A stretch of DNA of 64,000 nucleotides from Methanobacteriota archaeon (GCA_963720465.1 OY970393.1:1-64000), one strand, 5' to 3'. Shown: positions 4,933-62,001, counted from the first letter of the stretch. Translations and numbers: made by a program. The notes: generated by a model not told the origin, from the letters alone.

Positions 4933-5080
4933 GGCATGCTCGGTCGAACTACCTGGTTCACCGCGTTAGTTAAGCGCTCTGCGCACCGTCTACAGTTCGG
5001 ATCATTGACGTTTATGCAGCCTACGTGACGCCCGTAGTAGCACGCGTTGTTTTCTGCGATCATTGTATAGTGGCGGCATC

Positions 5081-5221
5081 CTAACTCGTTCGCTGCGCGT
5101 TCTCGTGCGCAGCATCGATGATCTCTGCTACGGTGAGGTCGGTATGTACTAAGGTGTGAAGCGTGCTTTCGATGATGGCGGCGATGTGCCGCTCGTATTC
5201 TGTTACTTCCTTTTTTGCCAT
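5081..5221 (-). CDS. Small hypothetical protein (46 aa)
   Basis: MAKKEVTEYERHIAAIIES...; strong GGAGGTGA RBS before ATG 5221. Confidence 0.5.
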   Translation of the reverse strand: MAKKEVTEYERHIAAIIESTLHTLVHTDLTVAEIIDAAHENAQRTS

Positions 5222-5508
5222 CACGGTCACCTCCGAACTAGACTGCGTAAGAAAGTTTCTTAAGGCCGCGTGAGGCAGGCTTTGTGTGCGAAAGTGTGAC
5301 GACAACTGTGCGTCACACCCTTTGCCGCAAGCAAGGCACCCACCCAGTGACAAACCTTCATACGTCTATCGCTTCTGCAAGATGTTATTTTGGCATCTTA
5401 GGCGCCGCTAGAACTTTCTTCTCAGATTCAGAAATCCAGGGCAGCCGACATCGGGATCAGGCTCGAATAGAAAACTTGATACGGCTAAGAATGGCAAGTA
5501 TCGCTTGT

Positions 5509-6312
5509 ATGGCGCACAAGAATGAAGCGCATCTACAGATCGTCACAGCGCTGATCGATGAGATACGCCGGCAAGATTCGGTGCAGACCATCGTTATTCA
5601 GTCTAAGAAGATACTGCGCGGAAAAAGCGGTGCCGCTCAGCAAATTGATGTTTACTGGGAGTTTCTGACGGGCGTAAAGGCGCACAAATGCGCAATTGAA
5701 GCAAAACATTGGGATAAGCCAGTCAGTCGAAGAGAGCTTAGCAAGTTCCGTGCCGTACTGGAAGATTTGCACGGGCAGCACAAGGGGGTATTCCTGGCAT
5801 CGAGCGGGTATCAGGAGGGGGCGCGTAACTACGCCGAGCGCCACGGGATTGACGTCTACATTTTTCCCTTCACCATCGAAATGACCAATGAAGACGTCAC
5901 CTTTTTTGTCCCCAAGTTTGAGCATATCGCGCCAGTGTTTGACGAAGAATGGATAGAGCACGTTTTGATGCCTAAGCTCCGGGAGGTGAGGTCTTTAGAA
6001 GTGAACGCGCTGAGTCCTGACGATCAAACGCATCTTTTTGATGAGCACTGCGCCGCTAAAACCGTGCGAGAGGTCCTTCACGAACATTACTTGGCTGAGA
6101 TACGAGATGCCACCGCTCACGAAATCTGCATACGGTTTGATCGGCCCACGTACGTGGAGACCGGCGATCCAAACGCGCCGATGTTGAAGGTGAACGGCTT
6201 AGACGCACTTTTTTCTGTAACGTCGCACGTTGAGACATTTGATCGCATTTCGAAGGATTACGCACGCGGCGCAGTCGAATTCATGCTCGCAGACGCGTTC
6301 ATTGGGCAGTAG
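5509..6312 (+). CDS. Mrr-like (type IV) restriction endonuclease, PD-(D/E)xK fold
   Basis: QIDVY...AIEAKHWDKPV...KGVFLASSGYQEGARNYA matches the Mrr catalytic domain. Start position approximate. Confidence 0.85.
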   Translation: MAHKNEAHLQIVTALIDEIRRQDSVQTIVIQSKKILRGKSGAAQQIDVYWEFLTGVKAHKCAIEAKHWDKPVSRRELSKFRAVLEDLHGQHKGVFLASSGYQEGARNYAERHGIDVYIFPFTIEMTNEDVTFFVPKFEHIAPVFDEEWIEHVLMPKLREVRSLEVNALSPDDQTHLFDEHCAAKTVREVLHEHYLAEIRDATAHEICIRFDRPTYVETGDPNAPMLKVNGLDALFSVTSHVETFDRISKDYARGAVEFMLADAFIGQ

Positions 6313-6394
6313 CCTGATCCAGCACACCCCCGCCGCGGGGTGGCCGCTAGAAAACATTATCTTTAGTGCGGCGCTTCATTTAGGTAGGGCCCAA

Positions 6395-6940
6395 ATGACG
6401 CGCGAAAAGAAGGTTTTGGCGAATCTGTACCATCTCATGGCTCTTGCGCTAGTTGCCGGAAACTCTGACAGCAGCACCGTTTTTCAAAGTGAGACCGGAT
6501 TTGCGATCACGTATCCTACACGTTACAGAACTGACCAAGCCGAGTCCACCTCTATAAAGCTCTACATCTACCTCACCGACAGCACTCCTGTCGATGCCGT
6601 TACGGTAAGCACTGATGATAGTTTCACCGCGCAAGCGACGCTCGATACGGTCATCGAGAGGTATGCTGATGCGATAACGACCGCTTACAAAGATCTCAAA
6701 GTACTCTCGAAGGACCGCACCACGTTGGGTGGCCACGCAGCATTTCGTACGGTCTACCGAGGCGTGCTTCCTGTGCAGTACGCTAACGATACGGTACGAG
6801 CAGAGACCCTAAAAGTGAACCAGACGTGGGTCATAAAAAACGCGCGGGTATACACGCTGACCTACAAAGCGCTTGCTCGGGACTATAACAAATACTTGCC
6901 ACACGCCCGGGAGATAATGAAGTCATTCACCCTGACGTGA
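6395..6940 (+). CDS. PsbP/DcrB-like exported protein
   Basis: GFAITYP, TTLGGHAA and VYTLTYKA...IMKSF are typical of the Mog1p/PsbP fold. Confidence 0.75.
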   Translation: MTREKKVLANLYHLMALALVAGNSDSSTVFQSETGFAITYPTRYRTDQAESTSIKLYIYLTDSTPVDAVTVSTDDSFTAQATLDTVIERYADAITTAYKDLKVLSKDRTTLGGHAAFRTVYRGVLPVQYANDTVRAETLKVNQTWVIKNARVYTLTYKALARDYNKYLPHAREIMKSFTLT

Positions 6941-7011
6941 ACTCATTTCTAGGACGAAACGACGATTCTTGTGCCCTCGCAATGCTCAGAAGAGGCCCAG
7001 TGCTCAAGGGC

Positions 7012-7302
7012 ATGCTTGAGGGTGTGTGGGCAGAGATAGGCAACTGGTTTGACCATAAGTACTCGGAGTTTGCTTGCGAGCGGCTATCGCGCTATCGGCG
7101 CTAAACGAGAGAGCAGGCGCAGGCTACGCGTTGTTGTTGAACGACCTCGCAACAAAGGCTGCGATCACACGCAGCCATACAGCGTAGCTGGGGTTGTCCG
7201 GGTGCACATGGTCGCAAATAGAAGACTATGCGGTAGAGCGTGAGCCCGCCGAAACGCGGATGGTTCGAGGTAGCCCAGAGGGCGGGCTCTGCTCTCAAGC
7301 AT
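7012..7302 (+). ncRNA. Candidate structured ncRNA of unknown family (~290 nt)
   Basis: Terminal stem ATGCTTGAG/CTCAAGCAT encloses at least six nested helices; G-U wobble pairs favour the + strand; no credible ORF. Confidence 0.5.
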
Positions 7303-7604
7303 CGACACGCTTATGCTGTTTAGATCGTACTTAACAGTCTTCCGCGCACTGCGAAAGTGTTTTTTTTGCATTGCGTGAAGCAGTCTAATGCTCTTAGCTA
7401 GGCCGACGCTCCGGCTGCGAGTCAGAAGTTGTTCGCGTTACGGCGTTATGATTCAACATATCAGTAGCATCCGAGCTTACAGAAGTGCCAGTTTAGCAGT
7501 TTTAGTGACATATTCGCGAATTTGGTTAAGAACATAAAAAAACGAAATACATTTATGAAGCTCGACGGACGTTACTCGTCTATCAGCGCAGCGGAGATGA
7601 CGCA

Positions 7605-7772
7605 ATGACAGAATTAAGAACCGTCAAGAAGAGTCGCGTCGGTGCCGTGGCGTTGATTGGCGCGACAATCGGAACTGTGCCATCGCTCATCTATTAGGTG
7701 ATTCTAGTGATTTTCATCCTTATGCATGCGGCAAACCTAAACGTTCTTCTGCAAGTCAGGGCTAGTGTATAG
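7605..7772 (+). pseudogene. Membrane protein remnant with in-frame TAG
   Basis: MTELRTVKKSRVGAVALIGATIGTVPSLIY*VILVIFILMHAANL...; the hydrophobic frame continues past TAG 7695-7697; GGAGATG upstream. Confidence 0.4.
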
Positions 7773-8041
7773 CTTAGATTTTCCATACACTTAAAATACA
7801 TCATTGCTGCTAGCTTTATATCTCTGTGTGTATGTTGAATGTATCTATCTTAACTATTCCATGTATTATTTATTAGCAATTGGTTTGTTATACACTGTCC
7901 ATACACAAAATATTAAAGCATCTTTTCTTTGTATTCGTCAATTTGTGACCTTATTCGATACTTTTTTGTAGTTGGTGCATTAAAGATGTATCATTTGCAG
8001 ATAATAGTGTATCATAGGAACTCGGAACAAGGTAGATACAC
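7765..8041. promoter_or_regulatory. AT-rich region with seven GTGTAT/ATACAC hexamers upstream of the RHH gene
   Basis: Copies at 7765, 7785, 7828, 7890, 7901, 8007 and 8036. Confidence 0.55.
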
Positions 8042-8059
8042 AGGGGGGAATCTTCTCAA

Positions 8060-8761
8060 ATGGCTCGTTTCAACATCACGTTACCAACTTCCATCGCAAA
8101 AATGCTCGATCAGGACGCAGAGCATCAAGATATAGCCCGTTCGACGCTCATTGCGCAACACATAGCACAGCACTATGAAGGAAGATCAGAGGCTGACTAC
8201 GAAGCTGAGATTCGGGAGCAACGCATAGAATACGAAAAACAAGTCCAAAATCAGCGTGCGGAAAGCGCTAATATAGTGCAACGCGTTAGCGCCGAATATG
8301 AGAATAAGATTGAGAAACTTATCGCTGAGCATGATGCTGAGATACAGCAAATCCGCGCTGAATGTGAGAAGCAAATACAGCAGATTAACGCAGACCGTTC
8401 TGCAAGTATCCAACAGCTCGAGAACTCGCTCGAAGAACTGGAAAGTGTTACGCAGCAGCTCGATGCTAATCTGAAGGAATCTGGAGAGCGCAACCGCTCT
8501 TTGATGGAACAGCTGCGCGAATCGGAAGCATCGAAAAACGTTGTTGTCACTGGCCTGCAGCACCGCGTTGAACTCTTAGAAAAGGACAAAGCAAGCCTCG
8601 AAGCGGCACTGCAAGTTGAGAAGGGTCACTCACTCGAATTAAAAGCCGATAAGGAGACCCTGCAGAAGCAAGTCGAATTGCAGATGTTGCAATTGCCTGC
8701 CCCTAAAGTCGGTTTTTTGTCTCGAGGTTGGTCGCGGATATTTTCACGAGGCAAGACGTAG
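8060..8761 (+). CDS. RHH (CopG-like) DNA-binding protein with long coiled coil and amphipathic tail
   Basis: MARFNITLP...RSTLIAQHI, about 170 aa of heptads, tail LPAPKVGFLSRGWSRIF. Confidence 0.8.
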   Translation: MARFNITLPTSIAKMLDQDAEHQDIARSTLIAQHIAQHYEGRSEADYEAEIREQRIEYEKQVQNQRAESANIVQRVSAEYENKIEKLIAEHDAEIQQIRAECEKQIQQINADRSASIQQLENSLEELESVTQQLDANLKESGERNRSLMEQLRESEASKNVVVTGLQHRVELLEKDKASLEAALQVEKGHSLELKADKETLQKQVELQMLQLPAPKVGFLSRGWSRIFSRGKT

Positions 8762-8876
8762 GCCCTGGAGAATGAAGACCGTGCCGTCACGGAAGTTAAC
8801 AAGGCGCTCCTTTGGATACCCGCACCCAACCGCACCGCAACAGCTGCACGCTACTTTCAGCGTTCAAAGCGCAAAG

Positions 8877-9713
8877 ATGAGGCTCGATCATACCGCCGCG
8901 TTAGTCACATCGTGGGCAGCGCCCTTGTACGCGGAGGGCCCGACCGCGGCATTCGTAGGTCAGCTCGACCTCTCGCAGGGACAGGAGCTCCTCGCGCGTT
9001 GTGACGGCATATGCCCCTGGTACGGCGAAGTAATCCGCGACCGAAAGCACTTTTTAAGCCATTTCATTCAAAAAGAACTGGCGACGCGGGCTGAGCAGTG
9101 TCAGGTGGTGATCCCCGCGGCTGGAGTTTCCCCTCTCGCGTTCGAGCTTCTGCTCTCACAGCGCGACCGCGTAAAAAAGGTAATTGAGGTCGATATTGCG
9201 GGCACGGCAGAGAAACATCGGCTATATTCAACCGTGGCGCCACATCTGGCGGATCGGATTGCCTGTGTCACCGCCGACATTACCACAGCTGGATTTTCTG
9301 CCGGAATGCTCGAAACCGAAGGCGGTTACCAGCCCGATGTGCCCACGATCGTGCTTTTCGAAGGAATCAGCTATTACATAACGGAAGCTCAGCTCCGTCG
9401 CGCGATTGCGGTATTTCGATCTGCACAACAGCAGAACCTCATCGTCCTTGAACACCTGGTTCCCTGCGCGCTTGTCAACGAGGCGAGGCGCTCAATACCT
9501 TCAGGGATCTTCCGAACGATCGGAACCTATGTGGGCCTGTCGAACATTCGGTGTTACAGTCCGGCCCACGTAGAAGCACTCTTTCAAAGCGTGCGCTGCT
9601 CGGAAGTCCAACACTACTCGTCAACCGATATGGAGCGCGTGCGAAAAGGGAAACCGCAACGATTTGTCGAAGACGGTGATGGGTGGATCGGATGCGCGGT
9701 CGGAGCGATATAA
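8877..9713 (+). CDS. Class I SAM-dependent methyltransferase (LCM-like)
   Basis: QVVIPAAGVSP, IEVDI, ADIT and PTIVLFEGISYY motifs. Confidence 0.85.
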   Translation: MRLDHTAALVTSWAAPLYAEGPTAAFVGQLDLSQGQELLARCDGICPWYGEVIRDRKHFLSHFIQKELATRAEQCQVVIPAAGVSPLAFELLLSQRDRVKKVIEVDIAGTAEKHRLYSTVAPHLADRIACVTADITTAGFSAGMLETEGGYQPDVPTIVLFEGISYYITEAQLRRAIAVFRSAQQQNLIVLEHLVPCALVNEARRSIPSGIFRTIGTYVGLSNIRCYSPAHVEALFQSVRCSEVQHYSSTDMERVRKGKPQRFVEDGDGWIGCAVGAI

Positions 9714-10651: not shown

Positions 10652-12076
10652 ATGGATGAAAAGGACGACATCGTTTTTCACGGAACTCTGCAGCAGCTCG
10701 TCGAGAAGGTCGAAGCGGGCGAGATGGTTCCCAAGCTGCAGGCATCGCACGCGCCGATGTGCAAGTTCTTTACTTCGTTTTATGTCATAAACGGGATTCG
10801 TCACGTGGTCCCTCTTGTGCACGGTCCAACCGGATGCCCTCTGTGGGTCTCAGATATTGTCAGGACGAGGGAGTGCTGCGAGTTCCGCGGCGTCCCCCTC
10901 GAGCCAACCGCATGCACCTCCCTTGACGAGACGAACGTCATCTACGGCGGCGAAGGGAAGCTGCTCGAAGCGGTCAAGGAGGCGGACGAGCGCTACCATC
11001 CCGACCTCATCGTGATTCTGTCCTGCTGCTGTTCCGGGATCATCGGCGACGACGTCGAAAGCGTCGCCGGTGAGGCCGAAAAGCTCGTGCACGCCCGCGT
11101 GCTCGCGCTTCGCAGCGAGGGGTTTGGCGGCGACTTCCGCAGCGGCTACGAAGACGCTTTTGAGCTCATTATGGACCTGATGGAGCCGCCGAAAACCACT
11201 CGGAAGGGAACGATCAATCTTATCGGGGCGCGAATGGGCCCCTCACTGACCGAGTTCAGCGACGACCTTGATGAGATTACGAAGCTGCTGCACGAGGTGG
11301 GGGTTAAGGTCAACGCGGTGATCGCTGGCGGATGCACGGTCGACGAGATCAGAAGGGCGCGCGAAGTTGAGCTCAACGCCTCGTGGTGTTACGATTGGGG
11401 TCAGAAGCTAGGTGACGCCATGGAAGCGCGCTTCGGCATCCCGTACAGCAGGACTGGACAGCCGTACGGGCTCAAAGCGACAGAGGAATGGCTTATGGGC
11501 ATCGCGGGCCCGCTCGGCATGAGGAAGGAGGCCACACGGGTGATACAGCGCGAGACGGAACGCGTTCGGCCTGATTTAACCTACTTGCACGACACGCTCG
11601 ACGGCAAGACTGCCGTTATCGAGATATCAGAGTTTCCCGGTCCGATACGGGCGCTCTCTCTTGCGCGTATGGCAGAAGAGTGCGGCGCTCATCCGGTTGT
11701 CATCAACGTGCATCCTTATACGATCAAGGAGCGGATGCCTAGCATCAAGTTCCTTTTGGACACTGGGGTCAACCCCGAAGTGATTCTCACGAAAGGCCTC
11801 TTTCGTCTAGGCAGCTTCCGTTCGTCGCGCGAGACGGAGGGCGAGCTCGAGGCAATCGCAGAGGGCCTTGACGACCCGATCTTCTTCGGCAACGCCGCCC
11901 GCTACCCCGGGTGTCCGGTTGTCAACCTTACGCTCCTTAATCCTGCGTACCTTCCCCACTATGGCTTCCGGGGCATTCACAACATCGCTGCCCTGCTCAG
12001 ACAAGCCATGGAAAACCAGCGCCTGCCGCGGTCAACGCTTTTTCGAGGGATGCTCTACGGAAACGAAACAAACTGA
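10652..12076 (+). CDS. Nitrogenase-like component I, alpha (NifD/NifE-like) subunit
   Basis: MCKF, HGPTGC, LDETNVIYGG, SCCCSGIIGDD, LNASWCY and YGFRG motifs; GGAG RBS before ATG 10652. Confidence 0.92.
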   Translation: MDEKDDIVFHGTLQQLVEKVEAGEMVPKLQASHAPMCKFFTSFYVINGIRHVVPLVHGPTGCPLWVSDIVRTRECCEFRGVPLEPTACTSLDETNVIYGGEGKLLEAVKEADERYHPDLIVILSCCCSGIIGDDVESVAGEAEKLVHARVLALRSEGFGGDFRSGYEDAFELIMDLMEPPKTTRKGTINLIGARMGPSLTEFSDDLDEITKLLHEVGVKVNAVIAGGCTVDEIRRAREVELNASWCYDWGQKLGDAMEARFGIPYSRTGQPYGLKATEEWLMGIAGPLGMRKEATRVIQRETERVRPDLTYLHDTLDGKTAVIEISEFPGPIRALSLARMAEECGAHPVVINVHPYTIKERMPSIKFLLDTGVNPEVILTKGLFRLGSFRSSRETEGELEAIAEGLDDPIFFGNAARYPGCPVVNLTLLNPAYLPHYGFRGIHNIAALLRQAMENQRLPRSTLFRGMLYGNETN

Positions 12077-13415
12077 TCAGACGCGCACCGCGCGAACGAC
12101 GCCCACTGACGCGTGCCTTGACCCATATATCAGATGTGCTCTTAGCGGCGCAGCCCAAACGGCGTTGGGAGTTAGTGACAGCGCCGTTCTCGCGCACGCA
12201 CCGCAGGGGTGCAATTATCTTGTTGACGGTGCTTTTTCATGGCAGGACTGCGACTACGCCCAAACGACGACGCTGTGCACCAAGCTCTGCGAGGATGAGA
12301 TCGTCCACGGTGGCGAGGAGCTCCTCGCCCGCACGATCCTTGAGGCCAAAGAGCTCGACATCGCCGCGCTCTTTGTTCTAAGCGCGTGTGGGCCCGAGAT
12401 CGTGGGCGACGACATCGTTGCGGTGTGCGAGGAAATGCAAGCCCAGGTTGACTTTACGATTGTTCCCATCGAGTGCGCCGGCTTTCGCGGTTCGCAATAC
12501 GATGGCATCGACCTCGCGCTCGACGCGATGCTTCGCGCGCTTGCCGGAAATGGGCGTCCTAGGATCCCGCACTCGGTGTGCCTCATCGCTCCCCATGCGA
12601 ACGCCAATCCGACGTGGATGGCCGATCTGGCGTGGGTAAAGGACGTTCTTGCCCGGCTTGGCGTTCAGGTGCTCGCCACGCTCACCCACGCAACGGCGCT
12701 TAGCGAGTTTGCACGCGTGTCCGCCGCTGAGGGGGTGCTTCAGTTAAGCCACGACGCCGGCTATCGCGCGGTCGAATATCTTATCGACACGTTTGGGGTC
12801 GAACCGCTTTGTAGGGATCTCCCCCTCCCCATCGGGATGACCAACACGCGGCGCTGGCTTACCGCCCTGGGGGAGCGGTTCGATGCGGAGCGCTCGGCCG
12901 AGGAGCTGATCGCCGAAGGCGAGCGGACGATAATGGAAACATGTCGCCGCCGCTGGCCAGTGGCGCGCTTTTTTTACCGGACGCCCGCGGCGGTCGTGGC
13001 TGACGCCACGGTTGGCATCCCGCTTGTCCGCTTTGCGACTGAGGAGATGGAGCTGACGCCCGCGCTCGTTGCCCTTCGCTCCGCGCACCCCGAAGCACAG
13101 CGCCTGCTTGAAAAAGAGCTGAACGACCTCGGCCTGGCGCCGCAGGTCGCGTATGGGACTGATGTCTTTGCGACGCGGCAGAGCCTTGAGCAGGTACGCC
13201 CGCGGGTGGTTTTCGGAAGCACGATCGAGAGACACGCAAGCGAGGGGTTGGACGTTCCGTACATCTTTGAGGTCGTGCGCCCTGTCAGGCAGTTCCGGCT
13301 GCTCAATCGGGAGTACTTCGGTTACCGCGGCATCCTCAATCTGCTCGAGTGCATCCAGAACGAGTGGAGCGACCGGTGGCGGTCAACCCAACGGCGTTAC
13401 GCTGCACGCTGGTAG
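12057..13415 (+). CDS. Nitrogenase-like component I, beta (NifK/NifN-like) subunit
   Basis: DPYIRCALSG, HAPQGC, EDEIVHGG, SACGPEIVGDD, LPIG and YFGYRG motifs. Start uncertain (ACG 12057 or ATG 11961). Confidence 0.9.
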   Translation, partial: TETKQTDQTRTARTTPTDACLDPYIRCALSGAAQTALGVSDSAVLAHAPQGCNYLVDGAFSWQDCDYAQTTTLCTKLCEDEIVHGGEELLARTILEAKELDIAALFVLSACGPEIVGDDIVAVCEEMQAQVDFTIVPIECAGFRGSQYDGIDLALDAMLRALAGNGRPRIPHSVCLIAPHANANPTWMADLAWVKDVLARLGVQVLATLTHATALSEFARVSAAEGVLQLSHDAGYRAVEYLIDTFGVEPLCRDLPLPIGMTNTRRWLTALGERFDAERSAEELIAEGERTIMETCRRRWPVARFFYRTPAAVVADATVGIPLVRFATEEMELTPALVALRSAHPEAQRLLEKELNDLGLAPQVAYGTDVFATRQSLEQVRPRVVFGSTIERHASEGLDVPYIFEVVRPVRQFRLLNREYFGYRGILNLLECIQNEWSDRWRSTQRRYAARW

Positions 13416-61927: not shown

Positions 61928-62001
61928 GGGCTCGTGGTCTAGGTGGTTATGACGTCGCCTTGACATGGCGGAGGTCGCCGGTTCGAATCCGGCCGAGCCC
62001 A
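61928..62001 (+). tRNA. tRNA-Val(GAC)
   Basis: GGGCTCG/CGAGCCC acceptor stem, TCGCC-TTGACAT-GGCGG anticodon arm, GGTTCGAATCC T arm; TTTATTA about 30 bp upstream. Confidence 0.97.

Follow-up and report, generated by a model that had tools for sequence, protein, structure and literature searches.

Genes and features of the locus

The window, by which we mean the whole 64,000-nt stretch of DNA analysed, comprises bases 1–64000 of a single 2.31-Mb contig of a Methanobacteriota archaeon. An intergenic stretch reaches from 6941 to ~7600, between a weakly PsbP-like open reading frame (ORF) on the left and a second ORF on the right (Table 1). Upstream of the PsbP-like ORF lies an ORF with an Mrr-type restriction endonuclease domain (PF04471; 5284–6312), and this adjacency is kept in six relatives. 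Farther to the right, the ORF 10604–12076 matches the nitrogenase component 1-type oxidoreductases (Pfam PF00148, 242.9 bits) and is followed by the overlapping ORF 11868–13415, an arrangement that suggests a Nif/Nfl-like or cofactor-biosynthesis gene pair. A 55-codon ORF at 6937–7104, overlapping the upstream stop codon, was rejected as a coding gene; it has an in-frame stop in one relative (L008), and only one genome (G009) keeps it, at 71% amino-acid identity.

On the minus strand of the intergenic stretch, 7197–7310 very probably belongs to a family of small RNA (sRNA) genes, a judgement drawn from comparative sequence analysis. This gene, which we call type A, matches our covariance model R1 with 87.2 bits (E 2.9e-24) and the broader model R2 with 72.3 bits, while the same place on the + strand gives just an R1 echo of 21.7 bits. 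Orthologs of the type-A gene occur in 14 other genomes of the genus.

Table 1. Features of the small RNA locus, its two flanking ORFs and the paralogs in the same genome
Feature	Coordinates	Strand	Remarks
Weakly PsbP-like ORF	6230–6940	+	Left neighbour of the intergenic stretch
ORF	8060–8761		Right neighbour of the intergenic stretch
Small RNA gene, type A	7197–7310	-	Covariance-model match (R2, 72 bits); likely transcript from ~7308 down to ~7216
Conserved block upstream of TATA-like box	7335–7373	-	Type-A specific; kept in all 15 type-A loci (alignment A1)
TATA-like box	7327–7334	-	Reads TTAAGTAC; TTAAATA in 14 orthologs
P1 5' arm as remaining (AUGC)	7299–7302	-	Pairs with 7228–7231; MFE fold of 7213–7308
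P2 5' arm	7291–7295	-	Pairs with 7235–7239
P3 5' arm	7281–7289	-	Same as 3' arm of the last helix of the + strand fold
Apical-loop motif CUACCUCGAA	7264–7273	-	Near-invariant
P3 3' arm	7242–7250	-	Same as 5' arm of the last helix of the + strand fold
P2 3' arm	7235–7239	-	From alignments and MFE fold
P1 3' arm substitute (GCAU)	7228–7231	-	4-bp substitute helix
U-rich 3' end, GUCUUCUAUUUGCG	7213–7226	-	Candidate termination region, probable
Paralog, type B	1765827–1765952		R2 match
Paralog, type C	1806932–1807058		R2 match
Paralog, type F	1833976–1834105		R2 match
Paralog, type D	1835774–1835899		R2 match
Paralog, type E	1910716–1910834		R2 match

In alignment A1 a block of conserved sequence is shared by the 15 orthologs and by five copies of a second locus. 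Written on the + strand, it extends from GGUCAAYAC to CAGCAUCGACAC and is followed by a variable 20 nt and then TATTTAA; on the minus strand the same elements read as TTAAATA, a spacer and a conserved RNA beginning GUGUCGAUGC. The type-A-specific block upstream of the TATA-like box is a possible BRE or regulator site.

The window copy departs from its relatives in several respects. In other members the P1 helix has 8 bp, GUCGAUGC with GUAUUGAC, whose normal 3' arm is missing here because of a 6-nt deletion next to position 7234; the deletion stands out against all 19 other sequences of alignments A1 and A2 and appears as a gap in the covariance-model alignment as well. The U tract is interrupted, the TATA-like box carries an A-to-G change (TTAAGTA) relative to the 14 orthologs, and the R1 score is the lowest of any type-A gene, 87 bits against 95–121. 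The P1 deletion and the altered TATA box may have weakened this copy. Four relatives (L004, L006, L008 and L009) carry 147–350 nt of A/T-rich, promoter-like sequence at 7108/7109 that is missing in the window genome, so that the window lineage has lost sequence next to the sRNA gene as well as the 6 nt within it.

The probable minus-strand RNA family: structure, promoter and distribution

Several lines of evidence point to the minus strand. RNAalifold arrives at a consensus of 21 pairs and -21.66 kcal/mol there, compared with eight pairs and -5.83 kcal/mol on the plus strand. Our first alignment, A2 (plain MAFFT, not fitted to the model), gives the same helices, with a C.A mismatch in P3 on the modelled strand in four of the five type-B sequences. 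In A4, an alignment of 56 members from reference genomes whose fit to the model biases its pair counts towards that model, 93.2% of 1027 cells pair, compared with 31–45% when the partners are slid; 10 of the 19 pairs change on both sides, in 40 cells, and the covariation score was reached by none of 500 shuffles, as was the case (0/500) for four of five measures. In A6, made from 56 distinct metagenome sequences, subject to the same bias and gathered by a search pattern in which parts of P1, P2 and the loop were fixed, 95.3% of cells pair, seven pairs change on both sides and again no shuffle among 500 reached the score.

Each helix contributes in its own way. P2 is paired in 99.5% of A4 cells and shows a C-G to U-A exchange in three sequences, P3 changes on both sides at four of eight pairs in A4 and at seven of eight in A6, and P1 is rewritten between types (GUCGAUGC/GUAUUGAC, UUAGC/GCUAA, CCGUGA/UCUCGG). 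Cells with G.U outnumber those with A.C on the modelled strand, by 201:40 in A4 and by 245:31 in A6; at one P1 pair, all 55 distinct metagenome sequences have G.U. Read on the + strand, these G.U cells would be mismatches. Minimum free energy (MFE) folds of single members reproduce P1–P3 (z -1.6 to -2.6), and the loop motif is unpaired in all five members folded, bar two or three isolated pairs in some.

Sequences flanking the structure agree with this orientation. The string TTAA[AG]TA ends 17–18 nt before the model start in 42 of 56 reference members and in all 77 metagenome members with enough flank, and GAAA occurs within 10 nt upstream of it in 27 reference and 53 metagenome members, the order expected of a BRE and a TATA box, which fixes the orientation of the promoter. 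Types D and E (14/56) have different A/T-rich upstream boxes. Downstream of P1 a run of at least four U is found in 40/56 reference and 55/77 metagenome members, and of at least five in 26/56 and 37/77; it follows P1 directly in type F, and in types A, B and D a further short hairpin stands between the two. Of the features generally looked for in an archaeal sRNA gene, the family shows a BRE/TATA promoter at the right distance and in the right orientation and an oligo-U signal after the structure.

Searching this genome with R2 gave six members, types A–F (Table 1), and a second closed genome (G011) has the same types at matching positions and in the same order. Most relatives carry three to seven copies, and three incomplete assemblies carry one. 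The stems differ widely between types, while the architecture is common to all six, as are P2 and the exposed loop CUACCUCRAA with the pyrimidine-rich stretch that follows it; the exact loop string is present in 50 of the 56 A4 members. Type A adjoins different genes in distant species, and around the five other paralogs we found no common neighbour theme (radical SAM, histidine kinase, geranylgeranyl reductase, GNAT, flavin reductase, PadR and others); such changing neighbours indicate free-standing genes. At least four genomes (including L185, L195 and L196) have types F and D as a conserved tandem pair with the same orientation, separated by 1–2 kb. At type-C loci (L060, L184, L186 and others) a conserved BRE/TATA-like sequence lies ~60 nt downstream on the opposite strand, facing the 3' end of the sRNA, and could possibly be an antisense promoter.

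Within the genome the 660-nt region occurs once, the only other match being one of 52 nt to a paralog at 1765829–1765880. With BLAST, the core 7235–7307 was matched in 14 of 17 other genomes of the genus, in none of six sister-genus genomes and in none of 17 genomes of other families. All 14 matches have in common only this core (extending to ~7365 in some); 7134–7235 is also common to eight closer relatives and 6801–7108 to four, and seven more distant species of the genus keep only 7235–7307, or up to ~7370. Model R1 found the family in 16 of 17 genus relatives, the genome without a match being 61% complete, and in none of the six sister-genus genomes, the same 24 genomes making up the whole class. 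Model R2 found it in all 13 genus relatives sampled, and in none of five sister-genus genomes or 132 genomes from 25 other families of the phylum. A scan of metagenome contigs with a specific motif returned at least 120 contigs, and among the matches listed 79 of 80 were strong R2 matches (58–110 bits). A looser two-block pattern, which is uninformative on the wider distribution, gave among the matches listed one true member in 80 (L125, labelled as an uncultured Methanomicrobia archaeon, 108.1 bits), the rest being chance. As far as searched, the family appears limited to one genus of uncultured archaea.

Known RNA classes do not account for the family. Scanning the whole window with Rfam 15 (4227 models) at the gathering threshold returned a tRNA-Val at 61928–62001 alone, and an E-value scan of 6800–7700 returned only SNORD57 at chance level (15.5 bits against a gathering score of 47, E 5.1). 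At the paralog loci L042, L060, L061 and L062 there was no match at E up to 1; the Rfam scans covered five of the six paralog loci, those of types A–E. The novelty inferred in the earlier note stands with respect to Rfam, as does its exclusion of SRP RNA and RNase P RNA, the genes for which lie elsewhere in the genome (RF01857 at 2168682–2168994, 179.7 bits; RF00373 at 654285–654574, 213.4 bits). The 5S rRNA (RF00001 at 930881–931002, 94.6 bits) and the 23S rRNA likewise map elsewhere. SRP, RNase P and 5S RNAs resemble the family in being structured RNAs of 120–320 nt, and the family length of 95–125 nt is near that of 5S rRNA, but their genome copies score far above threshold at other places, and the family is a single unbranched hairpin. 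The C/D box and H/ACA guide sRNAs, like the family, are archaeal RNAs of small size and of the abundant type, and their ends are paired. None of the 56 A4 sequences and none of the 79 in A6 contains a box C (RUGAUGA), the box D string CUGA is present in just 15 and 25, and no K-turn was seen. For H/ACA, an ACA follows the hairpin only on the + strand and ~10 nt off, the RNA strand being the minus one, and the folds have neither a pseudouridylation pocket with an upper stem nor a K-turn. ARAGORN found the tRNA-Val alone in the window and nothing in five type-B loci.

In the portion of the literature returned by full-text searches by topic and motif, no published description of the family was found; among the matches listed for its motif strings, the 17-mers were absent and the 11-nt strings occurred in unrelated papers. 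The family is new and absent from Rfam, and it is of an already known kind, the promoter-driven archaeal small RNAs; what is notable about it is the set of six paralogs with an invariant loop and the narrow taxonomic range.

The longer fold on the plus strand

The earlier note, made from the window sequence alone, had read 7012–7302 as a ~290-nt multi-branched + strand RNA, an undescribed ncRNA or ribozyme, or else as a non-autonomous mobile element. Its seven helices exist as drawn, with all 59 pairs standard in the window. Ten of the 59 are G.U on the + strand, which the note took as a sign of selection on RNA structure; this holds for the count, but across the genus the wobbles of the seventh helix point to the opposite strand. 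That helix, which is P3 of the minus-strand RNA, is the only one of the seven conserved across the genus and the only one belonging to the conserved RNA. The 3' arm of the closing stem (7294–7302) is the 5' part of the minus-strand RNA, and its 5' arm (7012–7020) repeats the sRNA 5' motif, tracking species-specific sRNA variants in three of five genomes.

Folding energy gives modest support. On the + strand the MFE fold of 7012–7302 is -120.5 kcal/mol, includes the closing stem and is better than dinucleotide shuffles, but weakly so (z = -2.48, with 2/200 as good); on the minus strand z = -1.60 and 12/200 are as good. The 64-kb window contains 83 perfect inverted repeats of 9 nt whose loop is no longer than 300 nt, ~1.3 per kb. 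Alignment A5 compares the + strands of the five genomes in which both ends are present. Three of the five have lost the 5' arm of helix 2, helix 3 pairs in 62.5% of cells and helix 4 in 60%, while the closing stem is 86% paired with one pair changed on both sides. Overall pairing in A5 is 81.7% against a shuffle mean of 80.2%, a level reached by 7/500 shuffles, for a structure derived from one of those five genomes. Between 7108 and 7134 relatives carry 147–350 nt, against 14–40 nt in the window. With a lost arm, two poorly paired helices and inserts of this size, the 290-nt unit is not conserved. An undescribed structured ncRNA very probably does lie here, as had been proposed; its size, strand and architecture are otherwise, a conserved RNA of ~95–125 nt on the minus strand forming a three-helix hairpin.

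Parts of the flanking DNA have + strand features of their own. In five close relatives the hairpins 7157–7176 and 7208–7229 retain G.U pairs on the + strand, with one A-U pair exchanged for G-C, and the consensus fold of 7109–7235 (eight genomes) is -17.5 kcal/mol on the + strand and -9.9 kcal/mol on the minus strand. The block 6941–7108, directly after the PsbP-like ORF, has 72–87% identity in four close relatives, and within it a local hairpin at ~7001–7020 has a 3' arm and loop resembling the 5' motif of the sRNA family.

Five RNA-library runs from two studies each contain 5–6% of the words sampled from 5000–9000. Assembled contigs from a relative 90–95% alike cover 7235–7366 in three of four runs, all of one study; in those three runs the contig consists of 6343–7106, then 310 other letters, then 7235 to 7366, 7403 or 7632, and in run X4 it stops at 7085. 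These contigs show neither strand nor ends, and DNA carry-over is possible.

Taken together, these data leave little room for a functional 290-nt RNA on the + strand, which we regard as very improbable. The complete set of pairs, the z-score, the wobbles of helices 5 and 6 kept in five relatives, the closing stem and the better + strand consensus of 7109–7235 all fit it, yet the fold is broken by deletion and inserts in relatives, inverted repeats of the closing length are common, and seven distant species keep the core alone, a core with minus-strand wobbles, a promoter and a terminator. Nothing was found in support of a ribozyme. Slightly better, though still improbable, is a + strand transcript in the window's clade that would run into the sRNA gene and form a cis-antisense pair with it, possibly as the 3' UTR of the PsbP-like gene by way of 6941–7108. 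This block is conserved in four relatives without an ORF, the RNA-library contigs of one study bridge 6343–7106 and 7235–7366 or beyond in three runs, and two hairpins keep + strand G.U pairs; against this, the contigs reveal no strand, do not establish one continuous transcript and may contain carried-over DNA, and consensus folds of 6941–7112 favour neither strand (-21.0 versus -22.2 kcal/mol). A non-autonomous mobile element bounded by the inverted repeat 7012–7020/7294–7302 is scarcely credible, for all that the 9-bp terminal repeat is perfect and a restriction-endonuclease-like gene lies nearby. The region is single copy, where a MITE or non-autonomous transposon would be present in several copies with terminal repeats and target duplications; both ends are kept in relatives while the interior changes, repeats of this size are frequent by chance, and the would-be right 'end' falls within conserved sequence of an RNA gene family that has a promoter of its own and whose members moreover occupy matching positions and order in two closed genomes. 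It is also very doubtful that the conserved block yields no RNA at all and acts in the DNA, as a regulatory region or a palindrome bound by a transcription factor. Such a reading would suit the nearly symmetric TATA-like box, but neither the strand-asymmetric excess of G.U over A.C nor compensatory changes in helices up to 80 nt apart would be expected of it.

Proposed function of the loop and its alternatives

The explanation that we prefer combines a free-standing archaeal sRNA gene on the minus strand with sibling regulators that pair through their loops, the 290-nt + strand fold then being a join of this gene to unrelated neighbouring non-coding DNA; as a whole we give it a probability of roughly one half. 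Transcription would start near 7306–7310 from an archaeal promoter, with its TATA box at 7334–7327 and the conserved block upstream. The ~95-nt RNA is predicted to form one long hairpin in which P1 joins the ends and is followed by an internal loop, P2, a second internal loop and the G+C-rich P3; an apical region of 30–35 nt would display the single-stranded CUACCUCRAA and then the pyrimidine-rich stretch, and the RNA would end in the U-rich tract. The six siblings would be trans-acting regulators, whose shared loop would base-pair with G-rich sites in mRNAs, either ribosome-binding sites resembling GAGGU or others, while variable stems and tails, and possibly promoters, would set them apart from one another. 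The gene family itself is much the firmer part of this explanation, and pairing by the loop is put forward tentatively.

Several observations bear on the pairing proposal. The 16S rRNA ends at its 3' side with GAUCACCUCCU, and the anti-Shine-Dalgarno core ACCUC is common to it and to the loop. Of the marks of sibling base-pairing sRNAs, the family has several paralogs that share an unpaired candidate seed motif. In 90 instances across the genome, GAGGUA precedes the start of an ORF (80 codons or longer) by 3–11 nt; the short GAGGU core is by nature common at starts. The extended complement T[CT]GAGGTA is not enriched at start codons, where 8 of its 162 sites fall (4.9%), the figure for the reverse-complement control being 58 of 805 (7.2%). 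Two stretches of this genome (G000) beyond the window, ~1167142–1176327 and 1218712–1219021, carry the 9-mer T[CT]GAGGTAG repeatedly, ~300 and ~600 nt apart; the pattern probably stems from repeated protein domains in large genes and not from sRNA target sites.

The main rival to the antisense model accepts the same minus-strand family and makes it a protein-binding or scaffold RNA, with the loop as the recognition site of a protein, for example an Sm-like protein. We consider this rather unlikely, although an 11-nt loop nearly invariant across six diverged paralogs, together with an invariant P2, is typical of protein recognition sites, U-rich tails are present and complementary sites are not enriched at start codons. 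On the other side, the alignments show neither a K-turn nor another known protein-binding motif, no protein gene proved to be a conserved neighbour, and a set of six paralogs that coexist with differing stems is a better fit to regulators than to one component of an RNP. A further reading, to which we attach very little weight, is that the six siblings would mimic rRNA as decoys titrating an rRNA-binding factor (for example a modification enzyme, an assembly factor or a ribosome-targeting nuclease). Its starting point is that the loop, (G/C)CUACCUCGA, has 9–10 nt of identity with the single-stranded strand of this genome's own 23S peptidyl-transferase ring (GCUACCUCGAUGUCGG), besides the ACCUC in common with the 16S 3' end. 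The identity does not exceed chance, shuffles as good numbering 107, 262, 239, 221, 14 and 54 of 300 for types A–F; the best matches of types C–F are elsewhere in 23S rRNA, and a G of the rRNA is an A in types C and E.

Bacterial sibling sRNAs with C/U-rich seed loops, such as those of the LhrC, CcsR and RsaE types, mask ribosome-binding sites. The siblings proposed here resemble them in consisting of several ~100-nt paralogs per genome, each with its own promoter and terminator, and in sharing an unpaired C-rich, anti-SD-like loop among variable stems. They differ in having an archaeal BRE/TATA promoter and an oligo-U end in place of a sigma-70 promoter and an intrinsic terminator, and one long hairpin with a single conserved loop in place of repeated C-rich loops; there is no sequence or Rfam relationship between the two. 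Regulatory sRNAs of methanogens, for example those of Methanosarcina mazei, are intergenic, promoter-driven and found in a narrow taxon, and are presumed to pair near translation starts. The family shares all of these properties with them, base pairing being presumed here too, but we detected no similarity, with Rfam 15 giving no match for the five paralog loci scanned and R2 none in 132 genomes from 25 other families of the phylum, and we know of no six-member paralog family with an invariant loop described among methanogen sRNAs.

The locus also teaches caution with long folds drawn from one sequence: a thermodynamically attractive one can turn out to be pieced together around a smaller gene encoded by the other strand. 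Hardly anything is known about regulatory RNAs in uncultured archaea, and the host lineage is known here from assemblies alone; the outcome for it is a defined sRNA family with a covariance model, a promoter, a structure, six paralogs per genome and many metagenome contigs. If it is true that the anti-SD-like loop pairs with ribosome-binding sites, the family would be a clear archaeal counterpart of the bacterial sibling sRNAs.
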